In this document: positions 1,004 to 16,161 of the stretch, one piece after another
Numbering within the stretch: the stretch's first letter is position 1
Layout of the letters: each line of letters starts with the position of its first letter
IMG/VR virus record: IMGVR_UViG_2737471845_000010
Span: 1-16,161 of that record
DNA: 16,161 nucleotides
Direction: 5' to 3' (one strand)
DNA from: a virus
Taxonomy: Duplodnaviria > Heunggongvirae > Uroviricota > Caudoviricetes
Translations under genes and position numbers: made by a program
Notes under the pieces: generated by a model
What the model was told of the DNA's origin: nothing
Database searches by the model: none
The model's input: only the letters and a program-made list of their open reading frames with translations

Positions 1004-1228
1004 GTCTTTTTCCCTATTCCGGTTAACGTGACATACCAATAACTCTTGTCTGAAAAGCCAGCAAGCTGAAAAACCGGTATTCGTAACCACCAGCGCGTTT
1101 AACGTACTGCACCACTTTTCGGGCACAAAAAACCCGCCTAACGGCGAGCTTAAGCTGTGTAGCGAAGTAACCACTCTTAACACACTAAGCGAAAAAATGC
1201 GGACCGCGTTAGTGATTTTTAGCAAGTT

Positions 1229-1259
1229 TTGCTTTATTTTTCCTACGTACAGTAAAAAT
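1229..1259 (+). promoter_or_regulatory. candidate sigma70-type promoter for the 336-aa gene (TTGCTT, ~18 bp spacer, TAAAAA)
   Basis: AT-rich divergent intergenic region 1004..1320; hexamers read by eye only. Confidence 0.25.
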
Positions 1260-1320
1260 AAGAAATCAATTCCAGCCAGGCTGGCTGAGTTAACACAGGT
1301 CTTAGAATGAGGGAACTTCT

Positions 1321-2331: not shown

Positions 2332-2350
2332 TCGGGCTGTCTGGTTTCAA
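2321..2350. terminator. hairpin AGCCCGA-gtaa-TCGGGCT overlapping the stop codon of the 336-aa gene, between convergent genes
   Basis: Perfect 7-bp inverted repeat at 2321..2338 followed by a moderately T-containing tract; lies between the 1321..2331 gene and the 3' end of Q. Confidence 0.4.
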
Positions 2351-2727
2351 GATTCCACTTCGGCATCCATTTCTAAACTTACATCCAACATACTCAGGCA
2401 ACCGTCGATAAACCCTTCAGCCATCTGTATCTCTATACGTATCAATTTCTCATCCTTCCAACGCGCCTTTGCAATCTTGCGCTTGGATATCCTGTATAAA
2501 TAATGTGCCACAAGAAGCGAATGCTCATAAGGCCTTTTTTGCTTTAAACAAGCAAGACAACCTTCAATAATTAATGCGTCACTATCTGAACAAGCCAGGC
2601 GTTTCTTACTGGTATAGGGCAGAAGTCCCTTAAACCCGGCAGCTATAGGTGAATAGTCCACACCCGAGCTATCACTAGCCGCCCATGCCCCCCAACGCTC
2701 AAGAACCATCTGAATATCACGCGCCAT
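2347..2727 (-). CDS. late-gene antiterminator Q (phage 21/82/DLP12 QuuD-like family)
   Basis: Translation MARDIQMVLERWGAWAA…IAAGFKGLL… matches my recollection of Q-family proteins of about 127 aa. ATG at 2727 preceded by GGTGG. Sits immediately downstream of rusA, as in the DLP12-type nin region. Confidence 0.8.
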   Translation of the reverse strand: MARDIQMVLERWGAWAASDSSGVDYSPIAAGFKGLLPYTSKKRLACSDSDALIIEGCLACLKQKRPYEHSLLVAHYLYRISKRKIAKARWKDEKLIRIEIQMAEGFIDGCLSMLDVSLEMDAEVES

Positions 2728-3088
2728 CGTTACCACCTGTAATTTCGTAAATCTTCACACCCAGCCGACCACCAGGTACGCGCTGACCGCGCACAATATT
2801 AATTTCATCAAACTGCTCGTCGTCGATAAGCAACCCCGCATGTGTCAGTGCATCCAGTGGTGCTTTCAGAATATTGTCCAGGTCACGACGGCGCTTATCC
2901 GGTGGCTCTGCAGTAATTTTTATTGCCAGCCTTCCGGACAGATTTAATTTCAGCCGCTGCTGGCGAACAATGAGCGCCACATCACGGCGATAACGCTCAC
3001 CGGCTTTTGATACAAAATATGTGCTGCCACGACGTCGCCAGTAGGTGTTTACCGTCGGCGGGTAAGGCAAAACAAACTCTATACGCAT
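2717..3088 (-). CDS. rusA: RusA-family Holliday junction resolvase
   Basis: Translation MRIEFVLPYPPTVNTYWRRRG…DKRRRDLDNILKAPLDALTHAGLLIDDEQ… carries the RusA hallmark segments (PPS/TVN…Y; RRRDLDN; DAL…AG…DD). RBS AGAGG 7 nt upstream of ATG 3088. Confidence 0.9.
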   Translation of the reverse strand: MRIEFVLPYPPTVNTYWRRRGSTYFVSKAGERYRRDVALIVRQQRLKLNLSGRLAIKITAEPPDKRRRDLDNILKAPLDALTHAGLLIDDEQFDEINIVRGQRVPGGRLGVKIYEITGGNDGA

Positions 3089-3100
3089 CAGTAACCTCTT

Positions 3101-4150
3101 TTACCCGAGCACGCCGGTTGCAAAGGCGTGATCAAGAAAACGAAAAATTAAATCAACCTGGGAACCATGCTTTTCTTCGAACGCCAGCGGATCCGCATGA
3201 AGTTCGTTGTGATGTTCCCGGCATAACGGTAGCGTGAAAATATCGTGGGATTTTGTTCCCATTCCGCCCTGACCATGACCAATCAGGTGATGGGGATCGT
3301 CGGCTGGCTTACCACAGCACGCACACGGCTGTGTCTTTACCCAGCGTGTATATTTCTCATTTATCCAACGGCGACGTTTAGGTCGCTTCATGAAAGATTC
3401 CGGAGACTCCGGATCTACGGCAATGCTGACCACCGTCTTTTCCTGTGGTGCGTTCTGTTGCTGGTGGGCGTGAGGTGGTAGCGCAATATTTTTTGTGCGC
3501 TGCTTCAGTATGCTGGTAGCTGTCTGCTCTCCCGGTACGATGTCGCTTTCGCGGTACAGGGAACGGATTTTTTCCACCGGTAATCCCAGCGAACGGCGTA
3601 ATACTGCTTCCGGTAGCGCGTCCGCCACCTGATTGCAGACCGCCCACCAGGATAATTCAGCCAGCGATAACTCCCGCTCCTGCGTGCCATTCATTGCGTG
3701 ACGGATGACGTCAATCATCCAGGCTGTCAGATTTTGATGAGCAAGTTGCTCTAGCGATTCCGAGGTCTGGTCGCGCAGTTGATTGTCACAGTGCCAGCAC
3801 AACACCATCGCGCCGGTACCGTAACGATGTATGACGATTTCACTGTGATGATAGTCACCATGAGGCCACTGGCAGGATTTGACATGACGCAGGAGCCAGT
3901 CAGATAGTGCACCAGCGCCGCCAGCAGCACGAATCACCCGCTCATCGCTGAAAAATGGCAGTAATGATTTATCTTCCGCCAGCGGCTGGCGAACGGCAGG
4001 AACAGCTCCGGACGGCAGACCGCGCATGTTTTTCGGTTCCGGCTCCACCAGCACTCGAGGGCTATGAAATACCTGCATGGATTCACGGCCAGGTTTAAGG
4101 ACCACCAGCCCAAGTTCCGGTACATGAACAGGTCGAAGCAATACCCGCAC
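3101..4150 (-). CDS. nin-region protein with C-terminal HNH-like zinc-binding motif (DUF968-like)
   Basis: 349-codon ORF; GTG start at 4150 preceded by GGAGG and coupled to the upstream gene's stop. C-terminus contains CACCGKPADDPHHLIGHGQGGMGTKSHD…PLCREHHNELH, a Cys/His-rich HNH-type pattern. Confidence 0.75.
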   Translation of the reverse strand: MRVLLRPVHVPELGLVVLKPGRESMQVFHSPRVLVEPEPKNMRGLPSGAVPAVRQPLAEDKSLLPFFSDERVIRAAGGAGALSDWLLRHVKSCQWPHGDYHHSEIVIHRYGTGAMVLCWHCDNQLRDQTSESLEQLAHQNLTAWMIDVIRHAMNGTQERELSLAELSWWAVCNQVADALPEAVLRRSLGLPVEKIRSLYRESDIVPGEQTATSILKQRTKNIALPPHAHQQQNAPQEKTVVSIAVDPESPESFMKRPKRRRWINEKYTRWVKTQPCACCGKPADDPHHLIGHGQGGMGTKSHDIFTLPLCREHHNELHADPLAFEEKHGSQVDLIFRFLDHAFATGVLG

Positions 4151-4151
4151 G

Positions 4152-4424
4152 TTACCTCCAGATGCGTTGCTGGAATGTGCGGGACGGACGCGGTGGGCGT
4201 TCAGAGTAAGGCAGTCTGACTGAGATTATCCAGTGTCGGAAGTCGAGGCTGAGGTCTTTCTGAAACTCGTAACCACGTCTGCGGTAGTTCTGAATTAGCC
4301 ACTCTGCCTGCTCTTCAGTGCATGGATCATGCTGGAACCAGTCGGTTTTAAATGCGCGCGAACGCCGCCCGTATCTGCTGGCAGGGGCGGTATCAGAATT
4401 GTGTAATTTGGTGTGGTGCGCCAT
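4152..4424 (-). CDS. hypothetical nin-region protein (start uncertain; may extend to TTG at 4478)
   Basis: ORF ends one base before the start of the HNH-like gene, suggesting translational coupling. First ATG is at 4424 (MAHHTKLHN…); the tracked ORF starts at TTG 4478. Neither start has a strong RBS. Confidence 0.45.
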   Translation of the reverse strand: MAHHTKLHNSDTAPASRYGRRSRAFKTDWFQHDPCTEEQAEWLIQNYRRRGYEFQKDLSLDFRHWIISVRLPYSERPPRPSRTFQQRIWR

Positions 4425-4605
4425 CTGTTTTCTCTGCTGGCGCAGCAGGTGCCAGTTGTTCAGGCTGGCGTGCGGCAATATTGTCTCTGATTTCTGTTGT
4501 CGTCAACCGCTTCTGTGCTTCCTCTCTTGATGAGTGAAGCGATTAACTTTACTATTTACTTAACAGGTTTTTCCTGTACCACGATTCCCTATACAGGAGG
4601 CCAGC

Positions 4606-4896
4606 ATGAGTGACGACAAAAAAATTGAGTTCAGCACCAGCGATGTGCTGAATGCTTTGTTGCATCGCCAGCAGAACATGCAACACCTGGCAACACAAGA
4701 AAACGTTGATAACCTCCGTCGTGAGATGGATACACGCCTGAACGTTATAGATAAGCGCCTCGACAAAATGGAGCAAGAAACCGAAAGACGGTTCAACAAG
4801 CTGGAAACCAAGTTTGATCGACTCCAGTGGTTTATTGTTGCTGCAGCTCTGGCTCTCATCTTCAAGGATTACATCTTCAGAATTATTGGTGCTTAG
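4606..4896 (+). CDS. small coiled-coil protein with C-terminal membrane anchor (96 aa), opposite in orientation to the surrounding operon
   Basis: Strong RBS AGGAGG 6 nt upstream of ATG. Charged heptad-like N-terminal region followed by the hydrophobic C-terminal stretch WFIVAAALALIF. Immediately followed by a terminator. Confidence 0.7.
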   Translation: MSDDKKIEFSTSDVLNALLHRQQNMQHLATQENVDNLRREMDTRLNVIDKRLDKMEQETERRFNKLETKFDRLQWFIVAAALALIFKDYIFRIIGA

Positions 4897-4901
4897 TAAA
4901 T

Positions 4902-4929
4902 CCGGCCCCGTTTTCGGGGCTGTCTTTTC
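4902..4929 (+). terminator. rho-independent terminator downstream of the 4606..4896 gene
   Basis: GC stem (G)GCCCCG-tttt-CGGGGC(C) followed by a T-rich tract (tgtcttttc). Confidence 0.6.
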
Positions 4930-5089
4930 ACATCTGCATCAGACTTTCCACCAACTTTTTATTGCCAGCTCCTGAAATCTGATCTACCTTATGCGCGTCA
5001 GAACGGCGCAATGCGCTCGCCTGTGATACGTTTACTTGTCATTGGTGGCAACAGATAACGGCAATTGTTGTTTCTGTTTGTTTCCTTCA

Positions 5090-5124
5090 AAAACCCCGGA
5101 CCGTCAATCCGGGGTTTTTGTTTG
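5090..5124. terminator. bidirectional rho-independent terminator (tR-like) ending the minus-strand early block
   Basis: AAAAACCCCGGA-ccgtcaa-TCCGGGGTTTTTG: perfect 7-bp GC-rich stem flanked by an A-run on one side and a T-run on the other, so it reads as an intrinsic terminator on both strands. Confidence 0.65.
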
Positions 5125-5204
5125 TTATCCCCAGCGGCAAATCGAATACACCATCAGCGCCACCGCCATCGCAATTCCTGCCGTTGTGAATGCTTCAGGC
5201 CAGG

Positions 5205-5567
5205 TCATCGTAAAATATCCTCCACGCTTATCAGTCCGTTTCGCTCCAGGTAGTCCATCACCTTATCCGGCAGTTTGCAGTCCGGCTTCGCTTTCCTCAG
5301 TTGCCAGGTTAACTGCTTTACCTGCATGGTTAACTCGTCGACCAGACGCTGATACCCCACTGGTTTGTATTCATAAAATTTACCAACTGGCGCTGCTGCC
5401 AGCGATTGCAGTGCAATTTCCAGAACAGCAATATCCATCTTATATGCGCGAATGAGGTCATGGTCGATTGTACCTGGTATGCACAGTCTCTGTGATTCAA
5501 TAGTCTCCTCTGCGTGGGCTATTAACTGCTCTTTGGTAAACCGTTCTTCTTTGGTCAAAGTCGCCAT
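5205..5567 (-). CDS. hypothetical early protein (120 aa)
   Basis: ATG at 5567 overlaps the stop of the upstream small gene; GGAAGAG upstream. No recognised motif. Confidence 0.65.
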
Positions 5568-5568
5568 T

Positions 5569-5742
5569 TTACTCTTCCACTTCGTCTTTTATTTCGTAAA
5601 TTGAGTAATTGCAGTGATTAAAGAAAACATCAATTGCCTCGTTTTCTATTTCCTCAGGAGTCGCGTCATCATCCACTTCAAATACATCTTCACGCACGCC
5701 ACCAACAATCCTCGTTTCGATAACTATTTTGAATTTTCGCAT
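5569..5742 (-). CDS. small acidic hypothetical protein (57 aa), below the ORF-track size cutoff
   Basis: Hand translation [65 protein letters not shown] upstream of ATG 5742; fills the gap between neighbouring genes. Confidence 0.5.
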
Positions 5743-5832
5743 TGTCTTACCACCATTTCTGGCAGTCTCCTGATGTTCTGAGGGTGCAGAAATCCCTCCG
5801 GTTAAGGATTTTATTTTCGATAATAATATTGG

Positions 5833-6189
5833 TTATTCTGGTCTGGTTTTTGTCGCCCTGCGTATCCGCGCTTTCACATTGCGCTCAATCTGAATTAGCT
5901 TTTCTATATTTTTACGTCTTTCCCGTTCCTCCTGACGCAATTGTTTTACATCATCTGCCAGTCTGGTTTCTCTTTTCGCCACAGAGAGCATCCAGTCAAA
6001 TGGCTCCACAACTGCACCGCAGATTTTACAACGGACATGACGCTCTTTTTCATCAACCCTGACAGAGGCGTGATGGCAATATGGTTTCTCCGATGGCTCA
6101 TAAAGAAAATTAACCTGATTACGTGGGTCATCCTCTTTTACCGGAAATAAAACAATATTACTTAACTCATCTTCTGGTTTTATTTCCAC
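5833..6189 (-). CDS. hypothetical protein with zinc-ribbon-like motif (CHH…C-x2-C)
   Basis: GTG start at 6189 preceded by AAAGGAGA; the longer tracked ORF (to 6264) would overlap the upstream gene. Contains PYCHHASVRVDEKERHVRCKICGAV. Confidence 0.6.
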   Translation of the reverse strand: MEIKPEDELSNIVLFPVKEDDPRNQVNFLYEPSEKPYCHHASVRVDEKERHVRCKICGAVVEPFDWMLSVAKRETRLADDVKQLRQEERERRKNIEKLIQIERNVKARIRRATKTRPE

Positions 6190-6190
6190 G

Positions 6191-6520
6191 TCACTCTCCT
6201 TTGATGCGAATACCTGCAACACGCAGTGCATGCTCCAAATCAGCCAGATAAAGCCAGCGCCCATGCTCTTTGGGCATCATGACATATTGCTCATCGGCAT
6301 TTATCGGATGACCCCTTCGAAGGTCATAGCAAGTCGGTAAATGCACTGCCCTTGCTTCCAGCTCTGCAATGCGTTTATCTCTGGCTTCCAGTTCGTCCAG
6401 TAACGCCAGCACAACCTGCGGTGTGACTTTCATGCGAAACGCCAGCAGTTTCTGAGGTGTGGACACTGTTTTTATTGCCTCTGCCACATCACGCAACGCC
6501 TGGTTGTTAATCTGATTCAC
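6191..6520 (-). CDS. hypothetical early protein with coiled-coil segment (109 aa)
   Basis: GTG start at 6520 with GAGGTG RBS; start overlaps the stop of the upstream gene (GTGA). LLDELEARDKRIAELEA heptad-like segment. Confidence 0.65.
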   Translation of the reverse strand: MNQINNQALRDVAEAIKTVSTPQKLLAFRMKVTPQVVLALLDELEARDKRIAELEARAVHLPTCYDLRRGHPINADEQYVMMPKEHGRWLYLADLEHALRVAGIRIKGE

Positions 6521-6831
6521 TGCGTCACCTCACGATTCCTCAACCAGATACAAACCGGTCCATCCTCGGTGTCATGAATGGAGCCAATAAACCAGCCCTC
6601 ACCCTCTGGTCGTTCAGGTTCCCATGCGGAAATATCGGGACCATCTGCATCCGGGTTAAAATCATCTTCATCCATACTGCGAATAGTCCACTGAAGATTA
6701 TTTGCCTTCATCCAGGCGTTAAATTCTTCCGTCGAAATATACTCCCGGCCATCACAAAATTTTTCATATTCAGGATGCGTCCAGCAGCCATATTCATCAC
6801 GTTCTACCGGCAGTTCTTTGATTTCAATCAT
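6517..6831 (-). CDS. hypothetical acidic early protein (104 aa)
   Basis: Internal ATG at 6831 preceded by GGAG at suitable spacing; the first ATG of the tracked ORF (6858) has no RBS. Confidence 0.6.
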   Translation of the reverse strand: MIEIKELPVERDEYGCWTHPEYEKFCDGREYISTEEFNAWMKANNLQWTIRSMDEDDFNPDADGPDISAWEPERPEGEGWFIGSIHDTEDGPVCIWLRNREVTQ

Positions 6832-6844
6832 AACATTAACTCCA

Positions 6845-7021
6845 TTAAGATAATGCAAAACAAATTAACCACACCACGACAACCGATGCTATTAACACCC
6901 TGATTGCAAACAGCGGGCTGATATGTCGAAAAGGATTTTCCCAGATAATAAAAGCCGCTGCCAGAAATGCACTGATAAGTAAAACAATAACAAACAGCTC
7001 AATTTTGATTATCCAGAACAT
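6845..7021 (-). CDS. small hydrophobic membrane protein (58 aa)
   Basis: Two predicted hydrophobic helices (IIKIELFVIVLLISAFLAAAFII and LFAIRVLIASVVVVWLICFAL); start overlaps the upstream stop. Confidence 0.45.
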   Translation of the reverse strand: MFWIIKIELFVIVLLISAFLAAAFIIWENPFRHISPLFAIRVLIASVVVVWLICFALS

Positions 7022-7023
7022 AT

Positions 7024-7320
7024 TCACTGCATCGCCTTCTGTAAAATAACCGCATGCCCCAGCTTCTCCGCCAGCGCCAGTTCTGCCTTAGCACCCGCCG
7101 ACCGCTGCCAGCCATTCAGCATGTAAATCGCATCCACGCAACGTATCATCGCCATGCAGATATCCATGTACTGCGACTGAGTCAGTCCGTCCGGAAGTAC
7201 TGCCGGGTTTAAGACGGTATGCCCTTCCCGTTTCAGTTCCTCTTCTGCCTTGTGGAACGCCTCACGGTTGAAATTTTTATACCCGGTCATCGGACCGGCG
7301 ATATAAACCCTCACCCTCAC
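7024..7320 (-). CDS. DUF4406-like protein (nucleoside 2-deoxyribosyltransferase-like fold)
   Basis: GTG start with strong AGGAGGTG RBS, overlapping the upstream stop. N-terminal RVYIAGPMTG…FN…AF motif typical of this family. Confidence 0.7.
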   Translation of the reverse strand: MRVRVYIAGPMTGYKNFNREAFHKAEEELKREGHTVLNPAVLPDGLTQSQYMDICMAMIRCVDAIYMLNGWQRSAGAKAELALAEKLGHAVILQKAMQ

Positions 7321-7709
7321 TCAATCACCTCCTGAAAATTACCCCGATAGAACGCCAGTACACGTTGCATTGATTCGCTGTTACGGCATTCCCGGCAAAT
7401 TATGTTCATGTCTCTGTCGTAGCGACGGATTTCACCATCAGGTAACTTCCGGACCAGTGCCGGGTCAGCTTTCTTCGGAGTTTTACACCACGCCTGATAC
7501 GCCTGTTCTGATACAAAAACACCGTGTTTACCGGATATGTACAAATCACCACAAGCAACCACATCCACAAGACAACGTCTGACCGTATGCCAGCCCGCCC
7601 CCGTTGCCCTCTCCAGTTGCGACATCGTCATGCGTTTGTTCCTGTGTATCAGCCCGATAATTCGCGCCTTCAGTTCTTCCCGCTGTTCGGGTGTAAAAAC
7701 GCTTGCCAT
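7317..7709 (-). CDS. hypothetical protein with predicted HTH segment (130 aa)
   Basis: AGGAGG RBS upstream of ATG 7709; segment MTMSQLERATGAGWHTVRRCL resembles a helix-turn-helix. Confidence 0.7.
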   Translation of the reverse strand: MASVFTPEQREELKARIIGLIHRNKRMTMSQLERATGAGWHTVRRCLVDVVACGDLYISGKHGVFVSEQAYQAWCKTPKKADPALVRKLPDGEIRRYDRDMNIICRECRNSESMQRVLAFYRGNFQEVIE

Positions 7710-7723
7710 GAGTCCTCCTGAAA

Positions 7724-8470
7724 TTACTTCACAACCCTTAAATGGCTGACATTTGAACGCCAGCTCTCCCAGTTAAAATTCACCCAGCGACCACCGTTCA
7801 TGGTCATGCGGTCCATCACGCGCTCGCCAAGCAGCGTATTCATTGCCGTATGGTTCAGGTTCGTCAGCATCCCGACGCTGTGCATCGAGGCTGTTCTGCG
7901 ATCGACTATCTGGTTCAGTGTGACCTGTTCGTTACGCGTATCCCGCTGCATACCAATTTCATCCAGGACAAGCAGGTCAACTTCACACAACCCCTGCAAA
8001 AATTTTTCGCCCGAGTTTTTGTTGTCGTAGTTGCCGTGTAACGCCAGCATCACATCCGCCACCGTCACCACAATCACGCTGCGACCTTTCGCCAGAAGAT
8101 GGTTGCCAATGGCTGCTGCCAGATGATTCTTTCCGGTACCCGGCTTACCGCTGAACACGAAATTTGTGCATCCGGTCATCATTTCTTCCGCGATGGATTT
8201 TGCCTGGCTCAGCGCGTGGCGTTGGCCATCGTTCTTCACCTGGTAATTCGCAAACGAACACTTCTGGTGCAACAGTTGGATACCGGAACGCTTCATAATT
8301 TTCTCCACCCGGATCTGGCGATTCTGGCGGTTAATTTCCTCACTACGCTTTCGCCCTTCTGCAAGCTGCCACTCTCGCCACTCGTCCACTGTCCGGTACG
8401 GCGCGGTTACATGCTGCGGGGCCAGCTTACGGATACGCTCAAGAACACCACCTGCCGCAATATTTTTCAT
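7724..8470 (-). CDS. DnaC/IstB-like AAA+ replication protein (helicase loader; Rac YdaV-like)
   Basis: Walker A motif GKPGTGKNHLAAAIG and Walker B-like LLVLDEIG; positioned immediately downstream of the replication initiator gene. Confidence 0.9.
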   Translation of the reverse strand: MKNIAAGGVLERIRKLAPQHVTAPYRTVDEWREWQLAEGRKRSEEINRQNRQIRVEKIMKRSGIQLLHQKCSFANYQVKNDGQRHALSQAKSIAEEMMTGCTNFVFSGKPGTGKNHLAAAIGNHLLAKGRSVIVVTVADVMLALHGNYDNKNSGEKFLQGLCEVDLLVLDEIGMQRDTRNEQVTLNQIVDRRTASMHSVGMLTNLNHTAMNTLLGERVMDRMTMNGGRWVNFNWESWRSNVSHLRVVK

Positions 8471-8476
8471 AACCCG

Positions 8477-9424
8477 TTACCCCCTGAATCCCGGCGGAAT
8501 TTCGGTATCCGGTTCAGAAATGTGATTCACACAACGCTGTACAGGCGAACGCCCCAGGCGGATGACCAGTTCGTCCCATTTTTCACGAAGCTTTGACGGG
8601 CTCATGACGTTTCTTACCCAGAATGGATCCCGTTGTACCCGACTGAACATTTCGCAAATTTGCCTGTGAGTTCTGCCATCCAGCACCCGCATTGTGCGCA
8701 CGTCATTGGCCCATGCTGTCCAGTTGGGTTCTTTCGGTCGCGTAATCTCGCCATCATCGCTGGCAGCCTGTTCGTAAAGACTCACGATTCGCCCCCAGAT
8801 CCACTGCGCACACGTCAAATCTTCCTGGCTGCCCCACTGGCGTTTTTTCGCACTGAACACAACCGCGTCAGGATGTCGGGTTAAAAAATCCTGTTCAGCC
8901 GTCTCCTCGTCCGGTTGCGAAGCTTCCGGACGAAAAGATCTTTTATCTGACGGATCAGGTTTTAATACTGACGGATCGGGGCCAACCATCGCCCCCCTAT
9001 CCGGCTGTTTTTTATCAATGGTTGATCCATCAAAATTTGAGGGGTCAACCGTTGAGGGGGCAATATTTGACGGGTCATTTTTTGCCTGGCTAATTTTTCT
9101 TTTCGGTTTATATGCCTCACGCGCCGCCGCTGCTGCTGCTTCGAGTTTTTCCACATTAAGACGGTAGATATTGCTTTCATTACGCCCACCGACCTTACGT
9201 TCCTCCTTCGTCAGCCAGCCGTTCTTTTCCAGTTCCGCTATCGCCGCTTTAACCGTTGATTCACTCTTTGCCCCAATCTGACGACGAATGGTCTCCACTG
9301 CAGGCCATGACACACCTTCGTCATTGCTGTAATCTGCAAGGCGAGCCATTACTGCCACCCTGGATAAGATCATGCCGGTGAAGGCACACCCTTCCCAGAC
9401 AAGACCATGAAGCTTGCTGCTCAT
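8477..9424 (-). CDS. phage replication initiation protein (lambda O-like functional analogue) with internal iteron origin
   Basis: GGAG RBS upstream of ATG 9424. N-terminal HTH-like segment; central repetitive DPSN/DPSV/DGST protein segment encoded by the iterons; followed by the DnaC-like gene. Confidence 0.85.
   Translation of the reverse strand: MSSKLHGLVWEGCAFTGMILSRVAVMARLADYSNDEGVSWPAVETIRRQIGAKSESTVKAAIAELEKNGWLTKEERKVGGRNESNIYRLNVEKLEAAAAAAREAYKPKRKISQAKNDPSNIAPSTVDPSNFDGSTIDKKQPDRGAMVGPDPSVLKPDPSDKRSFRPEASQPDEETAEQDFLTRHPDAVVFSAKKRQWGSQEDLTCAQWIWGRIVSLYEQAASDDGEITRPKEPNWTAWANDVRTMRVLDGRTHRQICEMFSRVQRDPFWVRNVMSPSKLREKWDELVIRLGRSPVQRCVNHISEPDTEIPPGFRG
8946..9115. repeat. candidate origin of replication: about five iterons (consensus TGA(C/G)GG(A/G)TC) plus adjacent AT-rich tract, inside the initiator gene
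   Basis: Copies at approximately 8948..8956, 8969..8977, 9038..9046, 9052..9060 and 9068..9076 (TGACGGATC, TGACGGATC, TGAGGGGTC, TGAGGGGGC, TGACGGGTC), followed by the AT-rich stretch 9077..9115. Architecture parallels lambda ori within gene O. Confidence 0.6.
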
Positions 9425-9447
9425 AAAAAACTCCGAACACCGTGCTT

Positions 9448-9873
9448 TTAGTGCATCACCACAGCATTTCCTGCCGGGCCACCACGATTCATCTGATTGA
9501 AACCGGCGATTGCCACTGCGACAAAATCATCAGCGTCTCTCACCAGTCGTTCCCGCGTCTCCACCAACTCCCGAAAATAGACTGAACTGTGGCTGCGCAT
9601 CCGGGCCACCAGCAGAGGTGGCATTGCTTTTTCGATAGCCGGTAACAACGCCTGAATTTTTTTAACCGCATCAGGAGTGTCTTTCTCTACCCAGCGGAAA
9701 ATTTTCTGGGTATTGCGAGCCAGGGCTTCCGGATGGCTATCGTCATACAGTTCAGGAAACGTCATACCCAACTCAAAATAAGCCTGGGTTATTCCAGCTG
9801 CTGGAACTTTTTCACCGTCCGGATGCGCCCAGACATTCATCGCCATGCGGATGTGTTCATGCTTGATTTTCAT
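9448..9873 (-). CDS. YdaT-like (CII-position) regulatory protein
   Basis: Begins MKIKHEHI, as I recall for the Rac YdaT family. ATG overlaps the stop of the Cro-like gene (ATGA). Position corresponds to cII in lambdoid layouts. Confidence 0.7.
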   Translation of the reverse strand: MKIKHEHIRMAMNVWAHPDGEKVPAAGITQAYFELGMTFPELYDDSHPEALARNTQKIFRWVEKDTPDAVKKIQALLPAIEKAMPPLLVARMRSHSSVYFRELVETRERLVRDADDFVAVAIAGFNQMNRGGPAGNAVVMH

Positions 9874-10085
9874 GAATCATTCTTTCCTTCGTTCGAGGTG
9901 CTATCCTGCTTCTTGTAAAGTTCTGGGTTGTATTTCAATTCACCGTTAGTAATTTCATCCAGCTCCATTGCTCGAAGTTTGGGAATAACTGCTTTCCACC
10001 GCACAACAGCCACATGTGAAATTCCAAGAGCCTCAGCTACTAGTCGCTTTTTTTTGAAATAGCGCAGAACATCATCTTTGAACAT
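9870..10085 (-). CDS. Cro-like repressor (DicC/YdaS-like small HTH protein)
   Basis: AGGAGAG RBS upstream of ATG 10085. 71 aa with HTH (RLVAEALGISHVAVVRWKA). Divergent from the CI-like repressor gene across an operator-bearing intergenic region. Confidence 0.8.
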   Translation of the reverse strand: MFKDDVLRYFKKKRLVAEALGISHVAVVRWKAVIPKLRAMELDEITNGELKYNPELYKKQDSTSNEGKNDS

Positions 10086-10114
10086 AAAACTCTCCTGTTA
10101 TTTCGAGCAGGAGG

Positions 10115-10176
10115 GTAACAATAGTTACATAGCAATGTCAACCATAGCAACATCACTTGGTAGTAACATTGGTTAC
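10115..10176. promoter_or_regulatory. OR-like operator region: two GTAAC-N4-GTTAC palindromes between the divergent cro-like and repressor genes
   Basis: GTAACaataGTTAC at 10115..10128 and GTAACattgGTTAC at 10163..10176, the latter directly abutting the repressor ATG. A TTGACA hexamer is present on the minus strand in this interval. Confidence 0.6.
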
Positions 10177-10851
10177 ATGAAAAACACTATCAGCGAACGT
10201 ATTCGGAATCGTCGAAAAGACGTTGGATTAACCCAACAGCAGGTTGCGAAAGCAATCGGCATATCTCGTGTATCCGTAACAAAATGGGAAAATGGCTCTT
10301 CAAAACCTGACGGTGAGAATTTACATCTACTGTCAAAATTGCTTTCCAAATCTCCTGAATGGATTCTTTATGGAAAGGACGGTCACGATAAAACCGATGA
10401 TCTGCGTCTGAATCAGTACCTTTACATTAGTGACAACATCGCCCGGTTGCCCGTTTTAACGTGGGAACAGGCTGGTTATTGGGATATGAGTTGCCCAGTA
10501 ACCGAGATTCCTGGTATTAAGAATTGGGTTGATGTCATGACAAAAACCGCTGAAAACTCTTTTTTATTGCATGTTGAGGGAGATGCGATGACAAACTCTA
10601 ACGGCCTCCCAACCATCCCCGACGGATCTACCGTGCTGATCACACCATGCTCAAGTAACATTAGAGAACTGGCGGGGAAAATAATCTTAATCCAATTGGA
10701 AGGAACGCCAAACGTAACACTAAAAAAAGTTGCGATTGACGGACCAAACATCTATCTGTTGTCACTGAATCCGCTTTACAAACCCATCGAACTGAATGGC
10801 GGTTACACCATTAAAGGTAAAGTTTCACAAATACATCAATACTTAGATTGA
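10177..10851 (+). CDS. CI-like prophage repressor (N-terminal XRE-type HTH plus C-terminal S24 LexA-like domain)
   Basis: HTH segment LTQQQVAKAIGISRVSVTKWENG. C-terminal domain aligns by eye with lambda CI (…EGDAMT…; …VTLKKV…). Start chosen at ATG 10177; the tracked ORF begins at TTG 10078 and would overlap the operators and the cro RBS. Confidence 0.85.
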   Translation: MKNTISERIRNRRKDVGLTQQQVAKAIGISRVSVTKWENGSSKPDGENLHLLSKLLSKSPEWILYGKDGHDKTDDLRLNQYLYISDNIARLPVLTWEQAGYWDMSCPVTEIPGIKNWVDVMTKTAENSFLLHVEGDAMTNSNGLPTIPDGSTVLITPCSSNIRELAGKIILIQLEGTPNVTLKKVAIDGPNIYLLSLNPLYKPIELNGGYTIKGKVSQIHQYLD

Positions 10852-10855
10852 GTCA

Positions 10856-10883
10856 GAACCCGCATTCATTGCGGGTTTTTTAT
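10856..10883 (+). terminator. rho-independent terminator after the repressor gene
   Basis: AACCCGCA-ttcatt-GCGGGTT stem-loop followed by TTTTTT. Confidence 0.7.
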
Positions 10884-10912
10884 GCCCTCAAACGTACCTT
10901 TTGCAACATCGT

Positions 10913-10939
10913 ATTGACTCATGTGGTAACTCTTGTTAC
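10913..10939 (+). promoter_or_regulatory. OL/PL-like element: TTGACT hexamer followed by the third operator palindrome GGTAACtcttGTTACC
   Basis: Same GTAAC-N4-GTTAC half-sites as the two OR sites (10925..10938), located at the head of the plus-strand early-left operon. The -10 element is not clear. Confidence 0.5.
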
Positions 10940-11259
10940 CTTAACAACATACCAACCCACTCCGCCCCACAGAATGCAGGGCAATACTTCGAGTTACCAG
11001 GCAGTGGTCAGGGGGTAAGTAGCCAGCCCGAGGCGTAAGAACATGACGGCAGGGTTCAACTTTAACTATGCAGCAGGTTTTTGTTCCGCTACCCCGGCGT
11101 TAAGGGGAAACAGAGGATTTCTCAGTGGGCGAAGTCAAACATCAGAATGGAAGGCATCCTGGGCTCTGCAAAGAAGCAGCAATGGCGCTTTATATTGACA
11201 TCAGCGCCATTGCCGGACAGCTAAGAATTATCAGGGCGGTAACTAAGCGGTATGCGCCT

Positions 11260-11460
11260 TTACTTCAGAAAGTCTCTTGTGAGTGCACCGAAGATATTGT
11301 CAACGATTTCGTCATCGAACTGCGAAGACTCATCTTCAGTTACAAGGTGACCACAATTTTTGCAGATGGCTCCCGCGAAACTGTCAGAGCCCTGCGGCTT
11401 AAAGGATGTGTCAAAGACTTCGCCACCACATTCTGGGCAAGAAAACTTGATTGTATTCAT
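11260..11460 (-). CDS. small zinc-ribbon protein (66 aa), antisense to the early-left operon
   Basis: Two CxxC pairs (CPECGG … CKNCGH) with an acidic C-terminus; GAGAGGAAA RBS about 6 nt upstream of ATG. The overlapping plus-strand ORF 11125..11481 is the alternative reading and contains several rare AGA/AGG codons. Confidence 0.45.
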   Translation of the reverse strand: MNTIKFSCPECGGEVFDTSFKPQGSDSFAGAICKNCGHLVTEDESSQFDDEIVDNIFGALTRDFLK

Positions 11461-11552
11461 AACCAATTTCCTCTCGAGTAACAGACCCCTCAGAGGATAC
11501 CACCTCGCCTGACGTGGTTAAAAGCAGGCAACGCTAACCACAAGGAGCCGAC

Positions 11553-11750
11553 ATGCAGAAACGAGAACCCGTCATCATCGCGCCAGACTATACCGATGAT
11601 GAACTTTATGAGTGGATGCGCCAGAAAATTAATGCAGCGCAGGATTTGAAATGGGCCAATGAAGCTAGGGCTAAGCAGGCTGAAAATCTGTCCGCTCTGG
11701 AGCAGGATATCACCAGGCTGGAAAAAGCAGCGGCATTAAGCATTGCCTGA
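11553..11750 (+). CDS. small hypothetical early-left protein (65 aa)
   Basis: RBS AAGGAG 6 nt upstream of ATG; coiled-coil-like C-terminus. Confidence 0.65.
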   Translation: MQKREPVIIAPDYTDDELYEWMRQKINAAQDLKWANEARAKQAENLSALEQDITRLEKAAALSIA

Positions 11751-11793
11751 ATGATTACATACCCACGTTAATAGCTAACCAACGAGGCTAATA

Positions 11794-12201
11794 ATGGAAT
11801 TTAAAGATTTACCAAAAGAAATCCAGACAATTGCTGCAACGACTCTCGGTGATAGTCTGGTGAAAATTGACCCGGCATACACCAAAAAAGAAACCATCGA
11901 TAATATGGTTCGTAATGTGCGCAATGCTTTTTCTGGGCTATATGGTTCTGATAATCAAAAGCAGGAAAGCGATGTTAATAAACGGGTAATTTCTGTTTGC
12001 GTGAATGGCCATGTTCTTTCATCAATCAAAACAGAAACGGCGACAGTCTTCGATTGCCTTTGCATTGTACAGAGCCTTGTTGATGCCCTGTTTCGTTCAG
12101 TGAATTTAGAAAATGACGCAAATCTGCGAGGGCGCACAATAGCACATCCATATGCACATACTTTAGGCTCTGTGGATATCAAAGATCCCACAAATCTTTA
12201 A
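11794..12201 (+). CDS. hypothetical early-left protein (135 aa)
   Basis: RBS-like ACGAGG upstream of ATG; 3' end overlaps the convergent minus-strand gene by about 23 bp. Confidence 0.6.
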   Translation: MEFKDLPKEIQTIAATTLGDSLVKIDPAYTKKETIDNMVRNVRNAFSGLYGSDNQKQESDVNKRVISVCVNGHVLSSIKTETATVFDCLCIVQSLVDALFRSVNLENDANLRGRTIAHPYAHTLGSVDIKDPTNL

Positions 12202-12412
12202 TGAAATAGTTAACGCGAATTGTACTTGCTCTTTCAGTTGCTTTCAGAATACGCGTTGAAACTGCTGGCGGTAATTTGGTATTCCATTTATTAAAATCAT
12301 GCCCGGGAAAGTACTCTTCGAAAATACTTTTAACTGCAGACTCGCCTATTGAAATGCTGCTTACCATGCGATTTTGATAAAGGCATTTAGCAATAAGAGT
12401 TGATTTTAACAT
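12179..12412 (-). CDS. hypothetical 77-aa protein encoded opposite to the early-left operon
   Basis: Strong RBS AGGAGGG 4 nt upstream of ATG 12412; convergent 3' overlap with the 11794..12201 gene. Confidence 0.55.
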   Translation of the reverse strand: MLKSTLIAKCLYQNRMVSSISIGESAVKSIFEEYFPGHDFNKWNTKLPPAVSTRILKATERASTIRVNYFIKDLWDL

Positions 12413-12747
12413 TCACCCTCCTGAAGGTTGGTAATTAAGGAGTTCTCCACGGGTGGGGTGGAGTGCGTGCGCCGGACACGGGTGAGCATCCGGCACTGAC
12501 AGTTTACTGAAAGGATATTTCTCTGAAAAGTCAGAGCATAACGCGAAAGCGCACGGCGAGGTTGCTGGTTCATAGATAGCCTGTCGTTAAATTTTCGTCG
12601 ACCGTGCGCTTCCGGTTGTGGCACCCCGCGAAATGGCGCGGCGGTAAGTATGGCGGGGTTATCCTTACCCCCACTGGTGGCACCGGGTTGTCAGGTTGAC
12701 CATACGCCTGAGTGACAACCCCGCCACAACATCTCCATGTTGAGGCT

Positions 12748-12802
12748 TGTGTGAGACCTTTGGCGGCATCAGTTTAATTGCTGGCTGATGTCCGCCCTTT
12801 TT
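12748..12802 (+). ncRNA. dicF: DicF-like small RNA (cell-division inhibitor sRNA family) ending in an intrinsic terminator
   Basis: Sequence …CCTTTGGCGGCATCAGTTTAATTGCTGGCTGATGTCCGCCCTTTTT closely resembles my recollection of E. coli DicF (GGCGG…AUCAGUUU…CCGCCCUUUUU). Long imperfect hairpin GGCGGCATCAG / CTGATGTCCGCC plus T-run. Located directly upstream of a dicB homologue, as in Qin. 5' boundary is approximate. Confidence 0.55.
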
Positions 12803-12985
12803 AAAGTGAATTTTGCGATGCGGTGAATGCGGCTAAGCGCACGCGGAACAGTTAAAAAGGCCAGTTGACTTCCGTATTGGTTCTTATGGGTGGGTTCTCT
12901 GTATCCGGCGTTAATTGTTAACTGGTTAACGTCACCTGGAGGCACCAGGCACCGTATCACAAAATTCATTGTTGAGGACGCGATA

Positions 12986-13174
12986 ATGGAAACGTTATTA
13001 CCAAACGTTAATACGTCTGAAGGTTGTTTTGAAATCGGTGTCAGAATCAGTAACCCTGTATTTACTGAAGATGCCATTAATAAGAGAAAACACGAACGGG
13101 AGCTATTAAATCAAATATGCATTGTTTCAATGCTGGCCCGTTTACGCCTGATGCAAAAAGGACGCTGCCAATGA
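12986..13174 (+). CDS. dicB: DicB-like cell division inhibitor (62 aa)
   Basis: Translation METLLPNVNTSEGCFEIGVRISNPVFTEDAINKRKHERELLNQICIVSMLARLRLMQKGRCQ is near-identical to the E. coli DicB sequence as I recall it. GAGGA RBS; the tracked ORF's upstream extension is not needed. Confidence 0.8.
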   Translation: METLLPNVNTSEGCFEIGVRISNPVFTEDAINKRKHERELLNQICIVSMLARLRLMQKGRCQ

Positions 13175-13374
13175 ATACAGCATTTGCACTCGTTCTGACA
13201 GTTTTTCTTAATACAGGCGAACCAGTCGATCTTGTTATTGGTATACATGACTCAATGAAAGAATGCATGGCTGCCGCAGCGGAACAGAAAATTCCCGGCA
13301 ACTGTTATCCGGTTGATAAAGTTATTCGCATGGACAATAACGAAATCCCGGCAGGACTTAAAACAGCACCGTAA
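13171..13374 (+). CDS. ydfD: YdfD-like small membrane/lysis protein (67 aa)
   Basis: ATG overlaps the dicB stop (ATGA). N-terminal hydrophobic helix AFALVLTVFL, then …CMAAAAEQKIPGNCYPVDKVI…, resembling Qin YdfD from memory. Same gene order as Qin dicB-ydfD. Confidence 0.6.
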   Translation: MNTAFALVLTVFLNTGEPVDLVIGIHDSMKECMAAAAEQKIPGNCYPVDKVIRMDNNEIPAGLKTAP

Positions 13375-13454
13375 TTAATATCCGGTTTCATTTTTATATG
13401 CCAGCAATGGCAGGGATTTGTTCACCATTAAATCTGTAATGAGGTTAAAACAAA

Positions 13455-15917
13455 ATGAGTAAAGTTTTTATTTGCGCCGCCATTCCGGACGAACAGGCAA
13501 TAAAGGAAGAAGGTGCAGTTGCTGTAGCCACTGCCATTGAAGCCGGTGACGAACGCCGCGCCCGTGCCAAATTTACCTGGCAATTCCTGGAGCAATATCC
13601 GGCTGCTCAGGACTGCGCTTATAAATTTCTTGTCTGCGAGGATAAACCCGGCATGCCCCGCCCTGCTATCGACTCTTGGGATACCGAATATATGCAGGAA
13701 AACCGCTGGGATGAGGAATCCGCTTCCTTTATTCCGGTCGAACCAGAATCCGATCCGATGAACGTCAATTTTGACAAGCTGTCCCTTGAAGTACAGAACG
13801 CGGTCCTGGTTAAGTTCGGTACATGTGAAAACATCACCGTTGATATGGCGATTGACGCGCAGGAATTACTGCAGGAAGACGTTGCTACCTTTGACGGGCA
13901 TATCGTTGAAGCACTGATGAAAACGCCTGAAATTAACGCTATGTATCCGGAACGCAAACTGTTCGCTATCGGATGGGTTAAACACAAATGTAATCCGGGT
14001 GCCAAATGGCCCGAAATTCAGGCTGAATTACGTAACTGGAAAAAACGGCAGGACGCAGAGCGCAAAGAGACTGGAAAATACACGTCTGTTGTTGATCTCG
14101 CCAGCGCCAGAGTCAATCAACAGAACACTGAAAACTCAGCAGGAAAAATCAACCCAGTCACTGCCGCCATTCGTCGCGAATACAAGCAGACATGGAAAAC
14201 GCTGGATGAAGAACTGGCCTACGCTCTCTGGCCTGGCGATATTAATGCCGGAAACATTGACGGCAGCATCCATCGCTGGGCAAAAAATGAAGTTATCGAC
14301 AAAGATCGCGAAGACTGGAAGCGCATCTCCGCATCAATGCGCAAACAGCCTGATGCGCTTCGCTACAGCCGCCAGACTATTTTTGGCCTTGTCCGTGAAC
14401 GACCGATCGACATTCACAAAGATCCCGTGGCACTGAACAAATACATCACTGAATACCTGACTACAAAGGGCGTGTTTGAAGATGACGAAGGAACAAATCA
14501 GGGCGCAGCTAATACTCTCTCGTCGCCAGTACCAGAAACTGATGCAGTGGAAACGGCAATTCCGGACAACGAAAAAACCGAATGCAAAGTGGAAGTCGAA
14601 CCATCTGTAGAGCGTGAGGGGCCGTTCTACTTCCTCTTCACCGACAAGGATGGCGAAAAATACGGTCGCGCAAACAAACTTTCTGGTCTGGATAAGGCGC
14701 TGGCTGCCGGGGCTACTGAAATCACGAAAGAAGAATATTTCGCCCGCAAAAACAGTACATACTCAGGTTCACAACAAAATACTGGTGCATCTGACACGAC
14801 CGCACAACCAGAGCCGGTAAAAGTTACCGCTGACGAAGTAAACAAAATTATGCAGGCAGCCAATATCAGCCAGCCTGACGCCGATAAGTTGCTTGCTGCC
14901 TCTCGCGGAGAATTTGTTGCAGGGATTAGCGACCCGAATGATCCGAAATGGGTTAAGGGGATCCAGACCCGCGATTCTGTAAACCAGAACCAGCAAGAAA
15001 CGGAACAAAACAGCCAAAATGCGTTACAAAACGAGCCAGAAACGAAACAACCTGAGCCAGTAGCGCAACAGGAACCGAAAAAAGTCTGCACCGCCTGCGG
15101 TCAGAGCGGTGGCGGCAACTGCCCTGATTGTGGCGCGGTGATGGGCGACGCAACATACCAGGAAACATTCGATGAAGAGAATCAGGTTGAAGTTCAGGAA
15201 AATGATCCGGAGGAAATGGAAGGCGCTGAACATCCACACAAGGAGAATGCTGGCAGCGCTCAGGACCACGCCAGCGATAATGAAACTGGCGGGACGGCAG
15301 ATCCCTTAATTGCGGTGAACGGTCATCACGTTATCACATCCACCAGCAGAGTGTGGTACCACCTGATGATCGACCTTGAAACAATGGGAACCAACACCAA
15401 TGCGCCCATCGTGGTTATTGGTGCGGTTTTCTTCGACCCACAAACAGGGGAAATCGGGCCAGTATTTTATATCGTTATCAGTCTGACTGACGCAATGAAT
15501 ACAGGGGCTGTTCCTGACGGTGGAACCATCAAATGGTGGCTGAAGCAGTCCAGTGAAGCCAGAGCTGCCATTTTAACAGGCCAGGTAAAACTGAAGGATT
15601 CCCTTTCGCGGTTTCGGGAGTTCATCAACGAATACTCAGATGAAAAATTCGTTCAGGTATGGGGTAATGGTGCAACTTTCGATAACGCAATTTTGCGCAC
15701 CTCATACGAACGTCTGGACATCCCCTGCCCGTGGCGCTACCACAACGATCGCGATGTACGCACAATCGTTGAGCTGGGAAAAACAATCGACTTTGATGCC
15801 AGAACCGTTATTCCATTCGAAGGCGTGCGCCACAATGCACTGGATGACGCCCGTCACCAGGCAAAATACGTTTCAGCAATCTGGCAAAAACTGATCCCGA
15901 ATCCGGTTGATTTTTAA
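13455..15917 (+). CDS. large early-left protein (820 aa) with C-terminal DEDDh 3'-5' exonuclease domain; resembles prophage proteins annotated as exodeoxyribonuclease VIII
   Basis: C-terminal motifs MIDLETMGT (Exo I, D-x-E), WGNGATFDNAIL (Exo II), HNALDDARHQAKY (Exo III, H-x-D). Central acidic/Q-rich low-complexity linker containing a CxxC…CxxC zinc-ribbon (CTACGQSGGGNCPDCG). Occupies the position of the recombination/exonuclease gene in the early-left operon. Confidence 0.85.
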   Translation: MSKVFICAAIPDEQAIKEEGAVAVATAIEAGDERRARAKFTWQFLEQYPAAQDCAYKFLVCEDKPGMPRPAIDSWDTEYMQENRWDEESASFIPVEPESDPMNVNFDKLSLEVQNAVLVKFGTCENITVDMAIDAQELLQEDVATFDGHIVEALMKTPEINAMYPERKLFAIGWVKHKCNPGAKWPEIQAELRNWKKRQDAERKETGKYTSVVDLASARVNQQNTENSAGKINPVTAAIRREYKQTWKTLDEELAYALWPGDINAGNIDGSIHRWAKNEVIDKDREDWKRISASMRKQPDALRYSRQTIFGLVRERPIDIHKDPVALNKYITEYLTTKGVFEDDEGTNQGAANTLSSPVPETDAVETAIPDNEKTECKVEVEPSVEREGPFYFLFTDKDGEKYGRANKLSGLDKALAAGATEITKEEYFARKNSTYSGSQQNTGASDTTAQPEPVKVTADEVNKIMQAANISQPDADKLLAASRGEFVAGISDPNDPKWVKGIQTRDSVNQNQQETEQNSQNALQNEPETKQPEPVAQQEPKKVCTACGQSGGGNCPDCGAVMGDATYQETFDEENQVEVQENDPEEMEGAEHPHKENAGSAQDHASDNETGGTADPLIAVNGHHVITSTSRVWYHLMIDLETMGTNTNAPIVVIGAVFFDPQTGEIGPVFYIVISLTDAMNTGAVPDGGTIKWWLKQSSEARAAILTGQVKLKDSLSRFREFINEYSDEKFVQVWGNGATFDNAILRTSYERLDIPCPWRYHNDRDVRTIVELGKTIDFDARTVIPFEGVRHNALDDARHQAKYVSAIWQKLIPNPVDF

Positions 15918-15983
15918 TGTTCACCCCTGATCGCCGTCCCCGAATTATATTGGCGGCGGTCATGCTGTAAGGCACGTGACCAC

Positions 15984-16161
15984 ATGTACGAATTAACTCT
16001 ATCGCCAGCAGAGATTCAAGAGATCACGAAATACGAGCGATACACAAAACAGCAACACCAGTTAAGGCTGCACGGTATCCCATTTGTAATCGGTCCTAAA
16101 AACGAACCAATAGTTCTTCGCAGGGATATTCCACACGGACTGACTACGATGCCAAAAGCAC
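15984..16161 (+). CDS. hypothetical protein, 5' portion only (continues beyond window end)
   Basis: ATG at 15984 opens a frame with no stop to the window end (MYELTLSPAEIQEITKYERYTKQQHQ…); weak RBS. Confidence 0.4.
   Translation, partial: MYELTLSPAEIQEITKYERYTKQQHQLRLHGIPFVIGPKNEPIVLRRDIPHGLTTMPKA

Follow-up and report, generated by a model that had tools for sequence, protein, structure and literature searches.

A RecE scaffold with a predicted DEDDh 3'-5' exonuclease cassette in the recE slot of a prophage early-left operon

The gene and its features

The DNA considered here is a stretch of 16,161 nucleotides from a virus of the Caudoviricetes (positions 1 to 16,161 of IMG/VR record IMGVR_UViG_2737471845_000010), referred to below, at its full length, as the window. 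Close to its right-hand end lies a gene for a protein of 820 amino acids, which appears to combine a scaffold of the type found in RecE, the exonuclease VIII of the Rac prophage of Escherichia coli K-12, with a C-terminal domain predicted to be a DEDDh 3'-5' exonuclease. The features of the gene and of its immediate surroundings are collected in Table 1. The reading frame is uninterrupted, starts with an ATG that has a GAGG Shine-Dalgarno sequence ~10 nt upstream, and is far longer than any chance open reading frame (ORF) of the window.

The protein family is well represented in databases. PHROG phrog_2082 covers the protein end to end (1-820 of 823, E 0), and a protein of 100% identity is on record in NCBI, named 'exonuclease' or '3'-5' exoribonuclease'. 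For identical database proteins a precomputed table gives two Pfam families, PF27430 and PF27432, besides the nuclease family PF16473; the names of these two could not be read, and it appears that the N-terminal regions have already, and newly, been curated as Pfam families. The gene is an ordinary, catalogued member of a very large annotated family of prophage proteins, for which both the domain content and a place in Rec modules have been documented before. No new kind of system is therefore to be revealed. New here are the assignment of the putative zinc motif and linker to RecE itself and of the N-terminus to a divergent form of the RecE N-domain, the combinatorial make-up of the family from scaffolds and cassettes with a conserved patch and a Chi site at the junction, the excess of the DEDDh form over recE in E. 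coli, and the error in the name 'exodeoxyribonuclease VIII'.

Table 1. Positions of the gene, its parts and its neighbours in the window
Feature	Position	Strand	Basis
dicB	12986-13174	+	annotation of loci with identical DNA; ORF ends agree
DUF1482/ydfD-like gene	13171-13374	+	annotation of loci with identical DNA; ORF ends agree
Complete coding sequence, 820 amino acids: RecE-scaffold protein with predicted DEDDh exonuclease cassette	13455..15917	+	ORF list, PHROG 2082, identical NCBI protein
N-terminal module ('B-type'), residues 1-235: alpha/beta subdomain (residues 1-97), then helical subdomain	13455..14159	+	hhalign, AlphaFold2
Helical middle domain, residues 245-343	14187..14483	+	BLASTP against RecE and phage 689R5 protein, AlphaFold2, dN/dS
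Linker island, residues 387-432 (GPFYF...GRANK...EEYFARK)	14613..14750	+	motif census
Conserved island, residues 455-507 (...DKLLAASRGEFVAGISDPNDPKWVKGIQTRD), also in K-12 RecE	14817..14975	+	BLASTP, motif census
Four-cysteine knuckle CTACGQSGGGNCPDC (C545, C548, C556, C559)	15087..15131	+	sequence, BLASTP, motif census
Near-identical DNA patch, residues 555-595	15117..15239	+	sliding comparison, dS
Chi octamer GCTGGTGG, 9 codons 5' of DEDDh motif I, at the junction of RecE-like linker and nuclease cassette	15340..15347	-	sequence scan
DEDDh 3'-5' exonuclease domain (predicted), residues 636-810 (PF16473, Rv2179c/DexA family)	15360..15884	+	Pfam, PDB phmmer, alignment, dN/dS
DUF4224 excisionase-like gene, start only, cut by window end	15984..16161	+	annotation of matching loci

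The C-terminal nuclease domain

Several lines of comparison place the C-terminus of the protein among the DnaQ-like DEDDh exonucleases. In Pfam it matches PF16473 ('Rv2179c-like 3'-5' exoribonuclease') over positions 2-177 of the 177 of the model, with an E value of 4.8e-68 and 228.8 bits, for a cutoff of 27; the general RNase_T/DnaQ family is also matched, more weakly, and there is weak similarity to oligoribonuclease. A phmmer search of the PDB leads to a T4-type DexA (8kel, E 1.8e-7), which is the only solved structure reachable by sequence and itself scores 79.9 bits in PF16473. The structure of Rv2179c was not retrieved by sequence or profile searches of the PDB with the window protein.

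The active site is complete, with D640-L-E642 as motif I, N738-G-A-T-F742-D743 as motif II, and H793-x4-D798 as motif III. An alignment was made of the window protein, 18 standalone homologues and one T4-type DexA, and in it D640, E642, D743, H793 and D798 are invariant in 20 of 20 sequences. They align with D7, E9, D119, H186 and D191 of DexA, whose catalytic roles are taken from PMC12153337. The ratio of non-synonymous to synonymous substitution rates (dN/dS) of this domain is 0.16-0.18 in diverged pairs. A PD-(D/E)XK domain was not found in the window protein by Pfam; the same search gives PF12684 (DUF3799) in K-12 RecE with an E value of 4.1e-28.

A sequence-only reading made earlier on this DNA had proposed a DnaQ-like DEDDh catalytic domain here, and not the PD-(D/E)xK fold of RecE. 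Both proposals are borne out, by the placing of the C-terminus in a nuclease family and by the conservation of the catalytic acids on alignment. The motifs then given need one correction: D-x-E and H-x3-4-D are present as described, and the middle motif has the spacing N-x3-F-D rather than N-x2-F-D.

These comparisons predict a metal-dependent 3'-5' exonuclease; we infer its activity, its polarity and its use of DNA rather than RNA as substrate. The annotation '3'-5' exoribonuclease' is unproven. The name 'exodeoxyribonuclease VIII', which several phage records give to homologues, is, on domain content, wrong for this gene, because the RecE-type nuclease domain is absent.

The RecE scaffold

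The region in front of the nuclease domain has a clear counterpart in RecE. Residues 279-619 align by BLASTP with residues 294-591 of K-12 RecE (E 4e-67), the last ~155 residues being ~80% identical, and the homology ends near RecE residue 591. This endpoint falls inside the range of boundaries reported for the RecE nuclease domain, the N-terminal limit of which is placed at residue 564 in a review (PMC11611040) and at 615 by Pfam PF12684. The earlier reading had described a fusion protein. The homologous region includes the four-cysteine motif of the linker, and the protein is, as judged from these alignments, not a new fusion of unrelated parts but a RecE scaffold in which the nuclease cassette has been swapped.

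More remote relationships are found at the N-terminus. The first 235 residues have no match in the local Pfam library, including no direct match to PF06630. Profiles were built from 10 proteins with the window-type N-terminus and 11 RecE-type N-termini, and their comparison by hhalign aligns residues 2-205 with the RecE N-domain family (PF06630 region) at a probability of 95.2% (E 2.9e-8, 194 columns). On this profile evidence the N-terminal module is a remote, divergent homologue of the RecE N-domain. Its own homologues, at 27-28% identity, occur in Stenotrophomonas and Pectobacterium phages. In an AlphaFold2 (AF2) model of residues 1-350 the alpha/beta subdomain is predicted confidently (predicted local distance difference test score, pLDDT, 80-93), residues 140-210 are helical and less confident, and the helical middle domain is again confident (pLDDT 82-94). 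By BLASTP this middle domain is common to K-12 RecE (~residues 294-353) and to proteins with the other type of N-terminus, and its dN/dS is 0.10-0.16. The N-terminal 330 residues had been left unassigned. As far as family is concerned this no longer applies, with residues 2-205 related to the RecE N-domain and residues 245-343 present in RecE.

The middle domain is followed by a linker (~residues 345-630) that is acidic and rich in Q, N, S, T, G and P, much as the sequence-only reading had noticed, and that carries conserved islands. It is proposed to be largely disordered. In a motif census the GPFYF island is seen only in proteins with the B-type N-terminal module, and K-12 RecE lacks it. 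The second island, at residues 455-507, has a dN/dS of 0.04-0.27, and the acidic spacer at residues 577-630 has a dN/dS of ~1. Two pairs of cysteines lie between these regions, spaced as CxxC-x7-CxxC; the same reading had recognized the two pairs as a zinc-ribbon, with a spacing of x10 that is not the one present. The counterpart in K-12 RecE is CNACGQTGGDNCPDC. The spacing is strictly kept in the 9 Escherichia-type members that bear the motif, RecE among them, and many family members are without it. It is confined to Escherichia-type members and is found with either nuclease cassette. The only zinc-ribbon match in Pfam is to DZR, with an insignificant E value of 0.13, and we refer to the motif as a putative metal site. 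Across the family the four-cysteine motif, the GPFYF island and an RGEFxGIS island are each optional. The homology to K-12 RecE indicates that the putative zinc motif and the linker belong to RecE itself.

Gene order, missing partners and Chi sites

Gene order was inspected in the window and in two chromosomes with an identical or nearly identical gene, in phages Evi, Tritos and vB_EcoS-689R5, and in three more chromosomes of E. coli, one of them with the gene split by an IS66 element. The order found throughout is kil/dicB, ydfD-like gene, exonuclease, xis, int. The order in Rac is kilR, ydaE, racC, recE, recT, ralR, rcbA, xisR, intR. The gene therefore sits in the recE slot of the early-left operon, which is where it had been placed by the earlier reading from its resemblance to Rac-type prophages. 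The same reading had remarked that no recT-like partner follows within the window, and had left the DNA beyond position 16161 to be read. In chromosomes with the identical gene an excisionase-like gene comes next, then an integrase gene, and then the bacterial attachment flank. The gene downstream is thus not an annealase, and recT was not seen next to the gene in any locus inspected.

Other partners of a recombination module are also missing. No annealase (single-strand annealing protein, SAP), SSB or anti-RecBCD family was found among the other ORFs of the window, and the annotation of close relatives, which does include rusA, names none either. Other prophage ORFs on the minus strand were scanned (3101-4150, 7024-7709, 6191-6520 and 5833-6264), and none is an annealase or SSB. 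They comprise a DUF968 protein with a weak HNH-like match, proteins of the families DUF4406 and DUF977, a fragment resembling Ead/Ea22, and a 142-residue ORF with a weak match to a TFIIB-type zinc-ribbon.

The window is rich in Chi octamers (GCTGGTGG). There are seven in its 16.2 kb (at 771, 1087, 3460, 4045, 4102, 9606 and 15340) compared with 0.48 expected, and none of 200 shuffles reached this number. Six of the seven are on the minus strand, the one that, with the prophage in this orientation, is the top strand by the lambda convention, and related phage loci have the same one-sided bias (6/0, 4/0 and 3/0). In a survey of lambdoid Rec modules, Zheng et al. (Genome Res 2025, PMC12315714) list DnaQ-like 3'-5' nucleases as one type of module nuclease. 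They define a 'Tritos' class of four phages that have a nuclease without an annealase (SAP), SSB or anti-RecBCD, all with at least 4 top-strand Chi sites. The count and bias of Chi in the window fit this Chi-rich class. Tritos itself has a full-length homologue of the window gene, of 84% nucleotide identity and in the same position.

A family of exchangeable parts

Among 1.84 billion cluster representatives, 11,835 proteins were found at E <= 0.001. Most of them are standalone DEDDh proteins of ~180-200 amino acids; besides these there are long proteins whose matches fall on different regions of the window protein. Pfam scans of 20 long matches, together with K-12 RecE and the protein of phage 689R5, give a matrix of architectures. 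A RecE-type N-terminus is joined to PD-(D/E)XK in K-12 RecE, and to DEDDh in seven proteins (P0162, P0163, P0171, P0173, P0174, P0179 and 689R5). The window-type N-terminus is joined to DEDDh in the window protein and P0159, to PD-(D/E)XK in P0176, and to a C-terminus without a Pfam match in P0168, P0172, P0180, P0186, P0205, P0242, ZF40 gp07 and the protein of Stenotrophomonas phage BUCT708. P0176 (921 amino acids), with its window-type N-terminal module and PF12684 C-terminus, is the reciprocal combination, and because of it both nuclease types are seen to occur on both scaffold types. These combinatorial architectures show that the C-terminal cassette is exchangeable.

A third kind of C-terminus deserves mention beside these. 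Pectobacterium phage ZF40 gp07 (L005:3974-6136), the BUCT708 protein (L006:3974-6103), P0172, P0180, P0186, P0205 and P0242 have the window N-terminal module and the GPFYF island. They end in a conserved domain of ~215 residues (…TSINxEYMxMRATExFGP…KKSLTDAxKKALSxLGFSADVWLGLYD), for which the Pfam matches to Rad52_Rad22 are sub-threshold (E 0.004 and 0.07) and structure prediction is weak (pLDDT 58). A Sipho_Gp157 gene lies 3' of the scaffold gene in ZF40 and BUCT708. Such proteins may be annealases fused to the RecE scaffold, and they may be the 'RecE-2' proteins of PMC12315714.

Between alleles, the synonymous divergence (dS) ranges from 0.02 to 1.1 across segments of one gene pair, and because it differs 50-fold between segments of the same pair, intragenic recombination is indicated. 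The folded parts are under purifying selection, with dN/dS of 0.09-0.18. One short patch of ~120 bp near the end of the linker (15117-15239) has 93-100% identity, at third codon positions as well, among Evi, Tritos, 689R5 and K-12 recE, and its dS is 0-0.05 compared with 0.2-1.1 in the flanks. An RNA element in the patch was considered and ruled out, with a fold z score of +0.60 and no Rfam match across the window. The patch is probably a homology patch for exchange of cassettes, by recombination or gene conversion between prophages resident in the same cell.

The position of the Chi octamer at the junction is unchanged in 7 of 7 DEDDh-type genes examined, including those whose cassette has a dS of ~1, and K-12 recE lacks the octamer. 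Its maintenance by protein constraint (ITSTSR) and by Chi function are both possible. Both patch and Chi lie where the shared linker gives way to the variable cassette; plausibly they mark the site of cassette exchange.

Prevalence in E. coli

Counts of DNA matches were made in 5426 complete E. coli genomes. A match of any extent to the whole gene is present in 4799 of them, and one with at least 80% coverage in 3467. The DNA of the DEDDh cassette alone is found in 3932 genomes, at 6705 places, and the nuclease cassette of K-12 recE in 1736, so that true recE is the less common of the two forms in E. coli. In all eight records listed for the recE cassette, recT is annotated alongside. Taken as a whole, the window is a mosaic: two complete E. 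coli genomes have the exonuclease gene with 100% identity, but at most 69% of the window is covered by any one complete E. coli genome. Intact copies of the gene are carried by the plaque-forming phages Evi, Tritos, HannyBb and others. In PK-F-10122 (E. coli, L012:2332-7510) an IS66-family element has split the copy of the gene within its DEDDh cassette.

Proposed function and alternatives

We consider it rather probable that this RecE-scaffold protein, of a Tritos/PPompW-like lambdoid prophage, works as a 3'-5' exonuclease on DNA in the recombination or replication of the phage, leaning on the RecBCD and RecA proteins of the host. In such a scheme the gene would be transcribed with the early-left operon upon induction. 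The first ~620 residues would serve as a non-catalytic RecE scaffold made of the divergent N-domain, the shared helical domain, and the acidic linker with its islands and four-cysteine knuckle. By targeting or oligomerization, as in RecE, this scaffold would deliver the nuclease to its substrate. The DEDDh domain, with its complete active site, would remove nucleotides from the 3' ends of DNA during lytic growth and, if it resembles DexA in this, would prefer single-stranded DNA (ssDNA) to duplex. For T4 DexA, Kang et al. (NAR 2025, PMC12153337) report the structure, and a 3'-5' DNA exonuclease activity with a preference for ssDNA. The phage itself would rely on the RecBCD-RecA recombination of its host, a dependence suggested because phages of this class lack an annealase and anti-RecBCD and are rich in Chi. 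More speculatively, the nuclease may trim intermediates of replication and recombination at their 3' tails or flaps, and might in this way make ends that are accessible to RecBCD. DNA is favoured over RNA as the substrate because of the kinship with DexA, the RecE scaffold and position in the recE slot, and the occurrence of standalone relatives inside Rec modules.

Several observations weigh against this scheme. A literature search found no paper in which the window protein or any full-length homologue was tested, biochemically or genetically. The RecE N-terminal scaffold is itself without an assigned function (PMC11611040), and fold searches with the N-terminal module gave no significant match. 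3'-5' DNA exonucleases usually inhibit recombination (PMC12315714), which makes the role of a RecBCD helper speculative. PF16473 is named after an exoribonuclease, and the substrate may be RNA; the association between Chi enrichment and this nuclease rests on few phages.

A role in defence or counter-defence is an unlikely alternative, with precedents. The nuclease would then destroy the modified DNA of superinfecting T-even phages, as reported for the E. coli DexA homologue EcD ('HREX'), or host immune nucleic acids such as the multicopy single-stranded DNA (msDNA) of retrons or other ssDNA products. Expression of EcD or of DexA from a plasmid gives protection against T4 (PMC12153337). Bobonis et al. 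(bioRxiv 10.1101/2020.06.22.160242) showed that retron msDNA is degraded by the RecE of Rac, which also triggers retron-Sen2, a precedent for the interaction of Rec-module nucleases with defence systems. In addition, the gene is extremely widespread in prophages. However, the DexA residues assigned to recognition of 5-hydroxymethylcytosine (5hmC), W152 and D169, align here with H763 and T777, the D169 region being a variable loop where the alignment is less certain. The gene also lies in the repressed early-left operon and not in the position of a moron expressed in the lysogen. PADLOC gives only a weak, generic DEDDh match (E 1.5e-4), and membership of a known defence system is not supported.

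It is a little less likely again that the protein is an exoribonuclease like Rv2179c, which would trim or degrade the RNA 3' ends of host or phage transcripts, small RNAs or tRNAs instead of DNA. The names point this way, both that of PF16473, derived from the M. tuberculosis 3'-5' exoribonuclease Rv2179c, and that of the identical proteins in NCBI, and so does the weak similarity to oligoribonuclease. Set against them are the solved structure that can be detected by sequence, which is that of a DNA exonuclease of the same Pfam family; the attachment of the domain to a RecE scaffold in the recE slot; and the placement of standalone relatives in Rec modules, where genes for SSB and anti-RecBCD flank them.

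Very improbable is a decaying, non-functional mosaic left behind by recombination between prophages. The 50-fold differences in dS within one gene pair would agree with it, as would the copies interrupted by insertion sequences and the many carrier prophages that are defective, but the ORF is intact, the active site invariant, the folded parts constrained, and the gene intact in phages that form plaques. Finally, the idea of a true RecE (exodeoxyribonuclease VIII), a 5'-3' exonuclease of double-stranded DNA, has next to no prospect in spite of the name in phage records and a partial match to the RecE equivalog model: NF007259 scores 293 bits for a cutoff of 1269, with only linker residues 445-620 matching model positions 437-603, and neither a PD-(D/E)XK domain nor recT is present, so that domain content refutes it at the level of the sequence.

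On the counts given above, the commonest 'RecE-like' protein in the prophages of E. coli is an enzyme predicted to have the opposite polarity to RecE, and without an annealase. Its function would bear on the purpose of the large, dispensable N-terminal part of RecE, and on how lambdoid phages without an annealase or anti-RecBCD of their own use host recombination. A broader proposal is offered tentatively, and we hold it to be doubtful. The N-terminal scaffold of RecE might be a general delivery platform that lambdoid phages load with interchangeable effectors acting at DNA ends: a PD-(D/E)XK nuclease of 5'-3' polarity, a DEDDh nuclease of 3'-5' polarity, and a third, faintly Rad52-like domain in phages of the ZF40 kind. 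These would be exchanged at the patch and Chi. The DEDDh version would then be an unrecognized partner of host RecBCD-Chi recombination in Chi-rich phages without annealases, and not a system of the RecET type.

Comparison with known systems

One comparison is with Rv2179c of M. tuberculosis, the founding member of PF16473, which shares the DEDDh fold. Unlike the window protein it is a standalone bacterial protein, reported to be an exoribonuclease, and the tie between the two is through the Pfam model only. DexA of T4 (PDB 8KEL/8KEN) and EcD of E. coli also belong to PF16473 and share the five catalytic residues with the window protein. They differ in being small standalone proteins of ~27% identity, and DexA has extra loops. 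The possibility that EcD is this very gene was rejected: the EcD primer sequence (supplement of PMC12153337) matches none of the fetched loci, and EcD is a different homologue.

Also comparable are the standalone DnaQ-like nucleases of lambdoid Rec modules, namely epsilon34 gp34, the mEpX2 exonuclease and that of Salmonella phage As1. They have 56-63% identity to residues 636-815, are encoded in early-left operons, and have a proposed function in recombination (PMC12315714). These are single domains of ~180 residues flanked by an Erf-type annealase, SSB and anti-RecBCD, with the order Erf, SSB, exonuclease, anti-RecBCD in mEpX2, whereas here a RecE scaffold of 620 residues is present and the partners are absent.

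RecE of K-12 has in common with the window protein its position in the operon, the middle helical domain, linker islands, the four-cysteine motif, a remotely related N-domain, and the nearly identical 120-bp patch. The two differ in the GPFYF island, which is not in RecE, and in how they end: RecE in a PD-(D/E)XK 5'-3' nuclease (PF12684) followed by recT, the window protein in the predicted DEDDh nuclease followed by xis and int. Relatives of a further kind are the members of PHROG 2082 in Tritos, Evi, mEp460_ev081, HannyBb and the PPompW prophages. These are full-length orthologues of 84-93% nucleotide identity, with the same architecture and the same neighbours, and they are set apart from the window gene by allelic and mosaic variation alone (dS 0.02 to 1.1, according to segment).

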